Source of the DNA: Candidatus Anstonellales archaeon
Lineage (GTDB): Archaea > Micrarchaeota > Micrarchaeia > Anstonellales > J096
DNA: 64,000 nt
Reading direction: 5' to 3'
Assembly (NCBI GenBank): GCA_038890745.1
Contig: JAWAFD010000002.1
Coordinates: 1 to 64,000 of the forward strand
Part shown: in pieces, positions 1-48,621 of the stretch
Position numbering within the stretch: the stretch's first letter is position 1
How the letters are laid out: each line of letters opens with the position of its first letter
Notes under the pieces: model-generated
Databases searched by the model: none
The model's input: only the letters and a program-made list of their open reading frames with translations
Told to the model about the DNA's origin: nothing
Position numbers and translations under genes: made by a program

Positions 1-278
1 CTTTGCTCCTAATAAGATAGGGGGGTAGAAGCGTGAGGGGGGAATAAGAATATGCTTAAGTCCCCCCTTGGCTAGTGGAAGAGGCAGGTGATGCGGCGAA
101 ACAAGTGCGACCCAGAAGTTTAGGTGGTTTGGGTCGCACCGAAGCCCTTCGGGTTGTTTCACCGCATCAGGGGGTCTGAGAATAAGTTAAAGTACCCCCT
201 GGTCTAACTTTTGCTCGTATAAGATAGGGGGTGGAAGAGGCAGGGGGTCTGAGAATAAGTTAAAGTACCCCCTGGTCT
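1..278 (+). repeat. Cluster of tRNA-intron-related repeat modules (5' end cut by window edge)
   Basis: 38-bp exact direct repeat at 168-205 and 241-278; TTTTGCTCGTATAAGATAGGGGG at 209-231; diverged copy at 2-80; all match the introns at 45528-45663 and 48472-48607. Confidence 0.9.
89..169. mobile_element. MITE-like palindromic insertion
   Basis: Terminal inverted repeats 89-104/154-169 (15/16 match); inner stem GTGCGACCCA/TGGGTCGCAC; interrupts GAGGCAGGGGGTC, which is intact at 237-249. Confidence 0.5.
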
Positions 279-280
279 CA

Positions 281-427
281 CGGGCCCGGAGGGATTTGAA
301 CCCTCGACCTTCGCCTTTCTCCAAAAACTTCTAAAGACATTAATGGATAGAAGCTGAGGACCACTTACTACTCTTAGACCCTCCGGCTTAGGAGAGCGCC
401 GCTCTATCCAAGCTGAGCTACGGGCCC
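281..427 (-). tRNA. tRNA-Arg(CCT) with 72-nt intron at 37/38 (317-388)
   Basis: Acceptor GGGCCCG/CGGGCCC, D-arm, GGTTCAAATCC T-arm; anticodon CCT at 392-390; central helix CTCC/GGAG. Confidence 0.9.
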
Positions 428-45410: not shown

Positions 45411-45677
45411 GCCGAGGTCGCATAATCCGGTAGTGCGTCGGTCTCGAATAGCCCTTTTTCGCCTTTGGCGAAAAAGCATTTAATCGGAAAAGAGAAAACC
45501 GATCCCGCAAGGGATTGCAGGTTCAAAACCAAACCTAGGGGGAAGTTTCCCCCTAGGTTCCAGGTCTCCTCCTTAACCCCCTCATTTTTGCTCGTATAAG
45601 ATAGGAGGGTTGGAGTTAGGGGGCTCATCTAATAAGCTGAGCTCCCCCCCTGGCTGGTGGAAATCCTGCCCTCGGCG
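45411..45677 (+). tRNA. tRNA-Ser(CGA) with two introns (37/38: 45449-45496; 59/60: 45528-45663)
   Basis: GCCGAGG/CCTCGGC acceptor, anticodon CGA 45445-45447, long variable arm TCCCGCAAGGGA, T-stem GCAGG/CCTGC split by a BHB intron. Confidence 0.92.
45528..45663 (+). repeat. 136-nt structured T-loop intron, copy 1
   Basis: BHB: TTCA/TGGA helix with AAA and AAT bulges; 92/96 identical to copy 2. Confidence 0.88.
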
Positions 45678-48413: not shown

Positions 48414-48621
48414 GCCCCAGTAGCTCAGTGGTAGAGCGACCGCCTCGTAAGCGGTAGGTCGTGGGTTCAACACCAAACCCAGGGGGAAGTTTCTCCCTAG
48501 GTTCCAGGTCTCCTCCTTAACCCCCTCATTTTTGCTCGTATAAGATAGGGGGGTTGGAGCTAGGGGGGTCTGAGAATAAGTTAAAGTACCCCCTGGTCTG
48601 GTGAGAATCCCATCTGGGGCT
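48414..48621 (+). tRNA. tRNA-Thr(CGT) with intron at 59/60 (48472-48607)
   Basis: GCCCCAG/CTGGGGC acceptor, ACCGC-CTCGTAA-GCGGT anticodon arm, T-stem GTGGG/CCCAT. Confidence 0.93.
48472..48607 (+). repeat. 136-nt structured T-loop intron, copy 2
   Basis: BHB: TTCA/TGAG helix with ACA and AAT bulges; 48564-48599 identical to 170-205 and 243-278. Confidence 0.88.

Follow-up and report, generated by a model that had tools for sequence, protein, structure and literature searches.

Bacterial REP, BIME and REPIN sequences are short, GC-rich extragenic hairpins that occur in many copies, in mosaic arrays and in both orientations (excerpts of PMC3733652 and PMC6006769; see also PMC3116915). Their ends touch or provide stop codons, and their distribution among relatives is patchy (excerpts of PMC3733652 and PMC6006769). 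A second group, the BoxC/PIT/TMECO repeats, combines a G/C-rich hairpin with a mirror tail in a purine-triplex symmetry; these repeats are intergenic, have no linked transposase and are associated with local rearrangement (excerpt of PMC4666352). According to the same excerpt, purine triplexes cannot form in RNA, are linked to intergenic deletions and have no tie to transposons, and BoxC has a class II layout without strand bias; the word "tRNA" is absent from the text of that paper. In archaea, similar bulge-helix-bulge introns occupy unrelated tRNAs of Thermoproteales (Fujishima 2010, as reported in part of PMC4090602), and ARMAN-2 carries introns at position 59/60 (part of PMC3239211). Gain at the DNA level has been proposed for these introns, the mechanism being described as not known (parts of PMC4090602 and PMC3239211). 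Finally, integrating elements with att duplication use tRNA genes as targets (part of PMC3293823).

A repeat family in the genome of a Candidatus Anstonellales archaeon shares traits with each of these systems. Like REP sequences, it consists of numerous short GC-rich extragenic hairpins in mosaic arrays and both orientations, with ends that touch or provide stop codons and a patchy distribution; like BoxC, it joins a G/C-rich hairpin to a mirror tail, is intergenic, is associated with local rearrangement and has no linked transposase. As in Thermoproteales and ARMAN-2, similar bulge-helix-bulge introns lie in unrelated tRNAs and at position 59/60, and, as with integrating elements, tRNA genes are targeted and tRNA ends are duplicated around some copies. 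No published description of the family was found in the main texts of the openly available literature.

Genomes and searches

The source genome (G000) comprises 989.5 kb in five contigs (C1-C5) and is 93.8% complete. The window, the whole stretch analysed here, covers the initial 64 kb of contig C2, base 1 being the start of the contig; it is contained in four hot-spring metagenome runs, all from one study. Two congeneric genomes, G001 and G002, were used for comparison. Repeat copies in G000 were located with 13 module references taken by coordinate. The list of tRNA genes holds 44 entries, 39 found by script and five by hand, whereas ARAGORN with intron search reports 20. A 19-base pattern of the family matched 11 loci among 185,579 species genomes, a set from which the G000 records were possibly excluded; all 11 are titled Ca. 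Micrarchaeota or Micrarchaeales.

An array at the start of the window

The array and the tRNA genes of the window that bear on it are listed in Table 1.

Table 1. Features of the array and of associated tRNA genes in the window
Feature	Position	Strand	Remarks
Repeat unit U, variant 2	2-73	+	Left part missing at contig start; conserved end at 73
Fusion joint	68-87	+	Intron-type 3' end joined to U spacer via 7-nt microhomology
Module P	89-169	.	Branched palindrome of 81 nt with terminal inverted repeats; fold z -6.3/-8.5
Hairpin H1	168-205	+	G5, 20-nt loop, C5, conserved end; 170-205 is Thr intron sequence
Complete U unit	209-278	+	Tail, G-run, spacer, hairpin H1; conserved end 278 towards tRNA
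Linker	279-280	+	2 nt, from element end to N73 of tRNA-Arg
tRNA-Arg(CCT)	281-427	-	Complete acceptor stem; found by ARAGORN with introns
tRNA-Ser(CGA)	45411-45677	+	Missed by ARAGORN and Rfam
tRNA-Thr(CGT)	48414-48621	+	136-nt bulge-helix-bulge intron at 59/60

In the first U unit, a G-run (20-25), a spacer, a second G-run (37-42), a 19-nt loop and a C-run (62-67) follow one another. The original prediction had likened the stretch 2-80 to the end of the Ser intron; a resemblance exists (73% identity to 45587-45662), but it is closer, at 96% identity, to the T-loop intron of tRNA-Gly(CCC) on C5. That prediction was right in holding 170-205 and 243-278 each identical to 48564-48599 of the Thr intron, 209-231 identical to the loop of its second hairpin (48530-48552), and the array to adjoin the 3' end of the opposite-strand tRNA-Arg(CCT), whose N73 lies 2 nt away. 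Its description of the array had overlooked palindrome P, the fixed polarity and the flush junction. Module P is nested between the spacer and the hairpin of a U unit and is present 15 times in the genome. The tRNA-Arg(CCT) gene has an unrelated anticodon-loop intron of 72 nt (about 317-388).

The intron-type 3' end at the fusion joint is the strand with which the T-loop pairs in a bulge-helix-bulge. The joint is found at five places genome-wide, the U spacer at 14, and the intron-type end also at C5:50601. The joint bears the 3' splice strand of an intron, so that copying from intron to array likely took place, probably as DNA.

The array begins at base 1 of C2, six contig ends fall in such arrays, and no clean unitig bridges 278/281 among the unitigs listed; these observations would suit a contig-end artefact or an intron of another RNA gene, the two outcomes that the original prediction named as fatal to it. 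Against an artefact, the assembly contains a single copy of the internal stretch 186-248, and unitigs at about single-copy depth match it with zero differences in two of the four runs (X1 and X2), all runs being from one study and X1 possibly the assembly's own source. Equivalent arrays also lie mid-contig: positions 1-205 recur at C1:21306-21510 with 99% identity and two differing positions. The depth across 1-300, about 3-35 times the single-copy level, is expected for a repeat family. In G002, an array built from other modules likewise stands directly behind the orthologous tRNA-Arg(CCT). Against an intron, the array is not flanked by exons: it follows a complete tRNA-Arg, there is no 3' exon on either strand, and Rfam reports nothing but tRNA above the gathering score, with weak miRNA-type matches below it. 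At base 128 the window has T, and all contigs of all four runs as well as the C1 paralogue have G; the T is probably a consensus error.

As to the sequence beyond base 1, synteny with both congeneric genomes ties the start of C4 to C1:156.8 kb, and synteny with G002 ties the end of C2 to the end of C3 and the end of C4 to the tRNA-Arg(GCG) side of the N gap in C1, so that the start of C2 would be left to join the start of C5. An exact 127-nt overlap of the end of C4 with the start of C5 favours another partner for the start of C2, the tRNA-Arg(GCG) array. Both candidate partners are arrays of module Q in the same order as in the C1 paralogue, neither has a 5' exon, and they lead to the 3' end of another tRNA or to a protein gene. 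The G002 array itself is no guide to this join, the gene after it being located mid-C1 in G000. At the N gap, C1:156809-156906, synteny in G001 and G002 suggests a place for contig C4, and the scaffold joint across the Q repeats there is therefore probably wrong.

The repeat family and the tRNA introns of G000

The genome-wide count that the original prediction had proposed yields 123 non-overlapping module copies in 27 clusters: 36 copies are inside tRNA genes, 71 in clusters at most 60 nt from a tRNA gene and 16 elsewhere. The interior of the introns is thus commoner outside tRNA genes (87 copies) than inside. Twenty-two clusters touch one of the 44 tRNA genes; the other five comprise three at contig ends, one chance-like 20-nt match and one intergenic cluster. 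Modules are shuffled, nested and tandemly repeated, in arrays of up to 500 nt. The idea of a REP/MITE-like family with shuffled modules thereby holds for its REP-like part, the repeats being present in introns as well as outside and concentrated at tRNA genes; a true MITE is not supported.

T-loop introns of G000 carry the unit in both orientations and reach 407 nt. Two introns interrupt the tRNA-Ser(CGA) gene: a short one in the anticodon loop (about 45449-45495) and one of 136 nt in the T-loop (45528-45663), the latter made up of modules A + L + H6. The intron of tRNA-Thr(CGT), at 48472-48607, consists of modules A + L + H1, and its excision in silico restores a normal 72-nt tRNA. Both inserts display a bulge-helix-bulge at the exon-intron joints at position 59/60 and are predicted to be spliced; a splicing-endonuclease gene of 383 aa is present in G000. 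The longest insert is that of tRNA-Trp(CCA) (C4:58113-58679), which has an anticodon-loop intron and, in its T-loop, 407 nt with nine modules in mixed orientation. A second family of 59/60 introns, single hairpins of 32-51 nt, occurs in at least 13 tRNAs of G000 and may provide the scaffold into which the long modules go.

At three tRNAs, the gene's own 3' arm is tandemly duplicated between units. The array that follows Ala(GGC), located on a different contig, contains the T-arm of Ala(CGC) as well, which shows copying between tRNA loci with the flank included.

Two further loci were noted in the same genome. At C2:135070-135175, a relative of palindrome P, of the kind seen in G002 arrays, occupies the entire junction between two ORFs: the frame of the upstream ORF extends about 15 codons into the palindrome, and the likely GTG start of the downstream ORF is in its last bases. 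From their motifs we take the upstream ORF to be aminotransferase-like and the downstream one Trm56-like. Two hairpin inserts that resemble each other, each about 50 nt long (C3:13993-14044 and C1:185793-185844), probably form a shared rRNA intron family, their hosts presumably being the 16S and 23S rRNA genes.

Polarity and flush ends

In 12 of the 44 tRNA genes of G000 the conserved end of the element is 1-2 nt behind N73 (0-3 nt as the general range), facing the gene in one orientation throughout and never reversed. A random intergenic position would place a conserved end so close with a chance of about 0.1% per site, a figure to be read in the knowledge that copies are not independent. Flush ends were likewise found at four of 20 tRNA genes detected by script in G001 (a fifth, doubtful match was dropped) and at five of 27 in G002, where three more were seen by eye in genes missed by the script. 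Linkers between element and boundary vary from 0 to 3 nt, and none contains CCA. The conserved end reads GTCT, GGCT, GTCG or GTTGT; a strict "CT dinucleotide" end was abandoned, since some subfamilies end in GTCG or GTTGT.

The rule extends to a sister module, B, of which G000 has one copy and G001 and G002 have many. Its pattern matches 11 of 176 genomes of the order, with no control matches; in a BLAST search of 401 genomes drawn from the phylum, 13 carry it at 87-98% identity, every one of them in this order, in four families. In a first set, 13 of 14 solo or first non-intronic B copies abut a boundary (at most 2 nt) or overlap it: four tRNA 3' ends, two tRNA 5' ends, four stop codons and three start codons. 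The remaining copy (L093) was assigned no boundary, and three matches inside introns or arrays were not counted; orthologues served to check four of the seven coding boundaries, and the other three were judged by eye. In a set fetched after the prediction had been made (29 loci, counted without two duplicates, seven intronic copies and array-internal copies), 13 of 15 B copies are flush, with eight tRNA 3' ends, four stops and one start. The exceptions are L163, where B is 10 nt before an ATG and against an SD-like sequence, and L143, where the other end of B is at the stop and a 36-bp duplication is present. Before start codons, B ends in an SD-like GAGGT 5-9 nt upstream. Four outward element ends before genes in G000 halt 1-3 nt short of boxes, recognised by eye, that we take to be BRE/TATA-like promoter motifs.

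Empty orthologous sites were compared at four loci, where the intergenic DNA is too diverged for exact joints. At L111 the stop position is ancestral and the spacer is not shorter than in the empty relatives; L121 lost one codon; L097 kept about 45 of 52 spacer bases; and at L117 the promoter region was replaced, contrary to a strict rule of stopping at function. Across these four sites there is no consistent loss of flank.

Turnover between orthologous tRNAs

Orthologous tRNAs of the three congeneric genomes, paired by similarity of their first 40 bases (rows of low similarity were not counted as orthologues), differ in their introns. For tRNA-Gly(CCC), the three states are a forward intron of 138 nt, a reverse intron of 178 nt with an array, and no intron with an array. 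For tRNA-Thr(CGT), they are forward (136 nt), reverse (97 nt) and short (52 nt); for tRNA-Pro(TGG), short (38 nt), forward (135 nt) and reverse (138 nt).

Beyond the genus, family f9 has a tRNA intron (L098/L168; at a contig end of genome G170) almost the same as the B+P module of G002, a match suggestive of recent transfer or mis-binning. In G001 (L148:1-1900), long direct repeats containing module arrays enclose two ORFs of 260 and 150 aa, the longer without a Pfam match. A separate repeat is found near tRNAs of G002 (L022:900-990, L036 and L198:1-150), and we assume that it resembles IS200/IS605 ends. At L198 it adjoins the promoter at which G000 carries a Q module; G002 has a TnpB gene.

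Loops and triplex layout

A G-N(1-2)-A loop is present on the G-rich strand in 46 of 61 distinct B hairpins, a set that includes duplicates of one locus and close kin, and in 16 of 26 loop variants; on the other strand there is none. All four GNA triloops occur, and five of eight tetraloop variants have a pyrimidine where an RNA GNRA loop needs a purine. GCGNAGC/GCGNNAGC mini-hairpins are far more stable as DNA than as RNA (excerpt of PMC13037366); the B loops match them and are accordingly read as DNA-type. Folding calculations are less discriminating: ViennaRNA also favours the G-rich strand as RNA, and with DNA parameters the strands differ by only 0.3-2 kcal/mol, in a method blind to these loops and to triplexes. 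A K-turn or C/D-box reading of the large loops was rejected, as no conserved tandem G-A pair was seen by eye.

The order G-run, G-run, C-run of unit U occurs 39 times in G000 and has the layout of a class I purine-motif intrastrand triplex, a structure predicted from sequence. Of 17 variants, 15 have beside the runs a base compatible with a T*A-T or A*T-A triad, and one three-way co-change was seen; at the next mirror position only five of the 17 are compatible, and the stem comprises only about six triads.

Relation to described repeat classes

With REP/BIME sequences the family has in common many extragenic palindromes and mosaic clusters in alternating orientation, as in the alternating B units of L158 and L163. 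Unlike them, it is archaeal, has units of 60-120 nt with nested inserts and neither a GTAG nor a CGTC end tag, and no RAYT/Y1 gene is linked to it or present in pattern-positive carriers; it also differs in being strongly biased towards tRNA genes, in keeping a fixed polarity and in serving as spliceable introns. The purine-motif triplex symmetry of BoxC/PIT is present in the sequence, on a short stem. The layout is class I (tail first), in contrast to class II in BoxC, and the stem is shorter with a loop of 17-20 nt (excerpt of PMC4666352). In contrast to the Thermoproteales and ARMAN-2 introns, the interior is more frequent outside exons, is found in both orientations and is up to 407 nt long. 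The inserts measure 60-500 nt, come without an integrase and mostly lack a duplication, unlike elements that integrate into tRNA genes (part of PMC3293823).

Terminal inverted repeats of the MITE kind are confined to module P and its relative at C2:135070 and are missing from U and B. In place of a regular target-site duplication there are sporadic 13-36-bp repeats, with a possible TA duplication around the relative at C2:135070, and DDE_3, the only DDE family searched, is absent from five genomes. A tRNA-primed retroelement or SINE is not indicated, neither an RT match in G000 nor CCA or intron loss at junctions having been found. For an integrative element or casposon, there is no tyrosine integrase in G000 and no stand-alone Cas1 in five carriers, and tRNA ends are duplicated in a minority of copies; for a non-autonomous IS110/IS1111 element, the IS110 recombinase is found in none of five genomes. 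Lacking the REP tag and RAYT, the class II layout of BoxC and the target-site duplication of MITEs, the family is filed under no known class.

How the repeats may move

The reading that we prefer, and to which we give about an even chance, is that of G/C-run hairpin repeats that move as single-stranded DNA, are copied between tRNA loci by template switching and gene conversion and have no enzyme of their own. The G-rich strand, exposed at the replication fork, would fold into mini-hairpins and a short purine triplex; the polymerase would stall at one end of this structure and restart on short homologies, namely the near-identical T-arms of tRNA genes or the G/C runs of other copies. Such restarts would shuffle modules, duplicate tRNA 3' arms and seed new tRNA loci. 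Deletions from the conserved end would continue until something essential is reached—N73, a stop or start codon, a ribosome-binding site, a promoter or a splice motif—and would leave the end flush. Copies landing in the 59/60 or 37/38 intron scaffold would be tolerated because the splicing endonuclease removes them, and introns would be a refuge of the repeat rather than its source as RNA. The observations that speak for this reading are the mosaic arrays, the fixed polarity, the flush junctions, the turnover between orthologues, the DNA-type loops on one strand, the triplex-type symmetry and the absence of the mobiliser families tested. End-anchored deletion with selection is preferred for the flush ends since the many kinds of boundary are visible to selection and not to one sequence-specific enzyme. 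Against it stands that the movement is, at every step, a reconstruction. Moreover, the near-identity of module B across four families in spite of its patchy presence is easier to reconcile with a mobile element carried by a vector than with passive copying. The empty sites, the short triplex stem, the kinship among the loop copies, the small strand difference in folding and the limited set of mobiliser families tested weigh against it as well.

Should a helper enzyme be the agent, the repeats would be non-autonomous elements moved in trans by an HUH/RAYT-like or other single-strand nuclease, encoded on a plasmid, a virus or a since-lost gene, which would recognise the hairpin, cut at the conserved end and either insert at gene boundaries or trim to them. 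This is a serious alternative, if on balance an unlikely one. One end of the element is precise and the other ragged, the loops are those of DNA mini-hairpins, and occasional 13-36-bp duplications surround a copy (L103, L146, L113 and L143); REP ends, too, often provide the neighbour's stop codon, and one REP superfamily is without a linked transposase (excerpt of PMC3733652). The junctions, however, have no common target sequence, and the search for a mobiliser that the original prediction had called for, HUH/Y1 and RT included, found none among the seven families tested, in genomes that are incomplete. G000 (93.8% complete) has no match to Y1_Tnp, tyrosine integrase or RVT_1, and a motif scan of its 1052 ORFs for HUH, RT and GIY gave four unconvincing matches. 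Among five carriers, IS110 and DDE_3 are absent from all, TnpB is clear only in G002, and Cas1 is present only at the CRISPR locus of G000. Of the 176 genomes of the order, 44 have Y1_Tnp; none of these is among the 11 pattern-positive genomes, and one is among the 13 obtained by counting two weaker matches as well (Fisher P = 0.19), hence no positive link. Four module patterns gave 0, 3 (chance), 0 and 0 matches to 2.9 million viral contigs, with no true copy among them. Two side observations concern the same searches. The Cas1 gene of G000 is beside a 4.7-kb CRISPR-like array (C3:29536-35531), in which no 16-mer of the array at 1-278 is found, and neither G001 nor G002 has Cas1. Nor does G000 have any tyrosine recombinase match whatsoever, and hence no XerA-like gene was found at its 93.8% completeness.

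A bolder reading, which we put forward tentatively and consider rather doubtful, is that of an undescribed, gene-boundary-seeking class of minimal mobile DNA in DPANN archaea, made of single-stranded-DNA structures of 60-120 nt and spread horizontally across families. Some machinery would place its active end at tRNA processing sites, stops and starts, and entry into the T-loop in either orientation would create and replace tRNA introns. Archaeal tRNA-intron gain would then have a visible, ongoing route.

Copying could also have been templated by RNA. An RT would extend processed RNA 3' ends (tRNA N73, 5' exon ends) onto element RNA, jump as well from RNA 5' ends and add 0-3 untemplated bases, and the cDNA would recombine into the gene; the deposition from reintegrated intron RNA envisaged by the original prediction falls under this heading. 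The junctions at N73, tRNA +1, leaderless ATG and the splice sites at 59/60 and 37/38 do all coincide with RNA-processing ends. Both classes of junction can be served by a single physical end of the element, the linkers vary from 0 to 3 nt, and the G-rich strand folds better as RNA. We nevertheless consider this route improbable: no RVT_1 and no convincing RT motif is found in G000, linkers contain no CCA, T-loop introns beside arrays are retained rather than lost, introns carry the element in both orientations, the loops are DNA-type, and neither an overlap with a stop codon nor an end flush with a promoter corresponds to an RNA end. A related idea, that the tRNA 3' end acts as a primer, is weakened because the same element end also abuts tRNA 5' ends, promoters and the starts and stops of coding sequences.

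That the repeats serve mainly a host function—as terminators or processing signals where they follow a gene, as ribosome-binding sites where they precede one, with selection alone setting orientation and position—strikes us as quite improbable. Behind genes, the transcribed strand reads as a hairpin and then a pyrimidine run, and the SD-like end of B before start codons has been described above, but 32 of the 44 G000 tRNAs have no array, gain and loss among orthologues are free, arrays reach 500 nt with nested inserts, and the arrival of copies is left unexplained. As a filter, host function may explain the orientation bias. To a contig-end artefact or an intron of another RNA gene we give next to no credence, in view of the single-copy internal joint, the comparable mid-contig arrays, the G002 orthologue, the partner ends and the lack of a 3' exon and of Rfam matches other than tRNA.

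Implications

What this analysis adds is the counted rule of polarity and flush ends over several kinds of boundary, the DNA-loop signature on one strand, the intron states of orthologous tRNAs and the order-wide distribution. The interior of an archaeal tRNA intron is found as a free repeat family, and at one and the same tRNA three congeneric genomes display the states none, forward and reverse. The family accounts for tRNAs missed by standard tools and for assembly breaks in these genomes, and it extends REP/BoxC-like repeats to ultrasmall archaea. With a defined active end and a DNA-type structure, intron gain becomes experimentally testable. If the preferred reading is true, these repeats would offer a testable explanation of how introns are gained and exchanged by archaeal tRNA genes.
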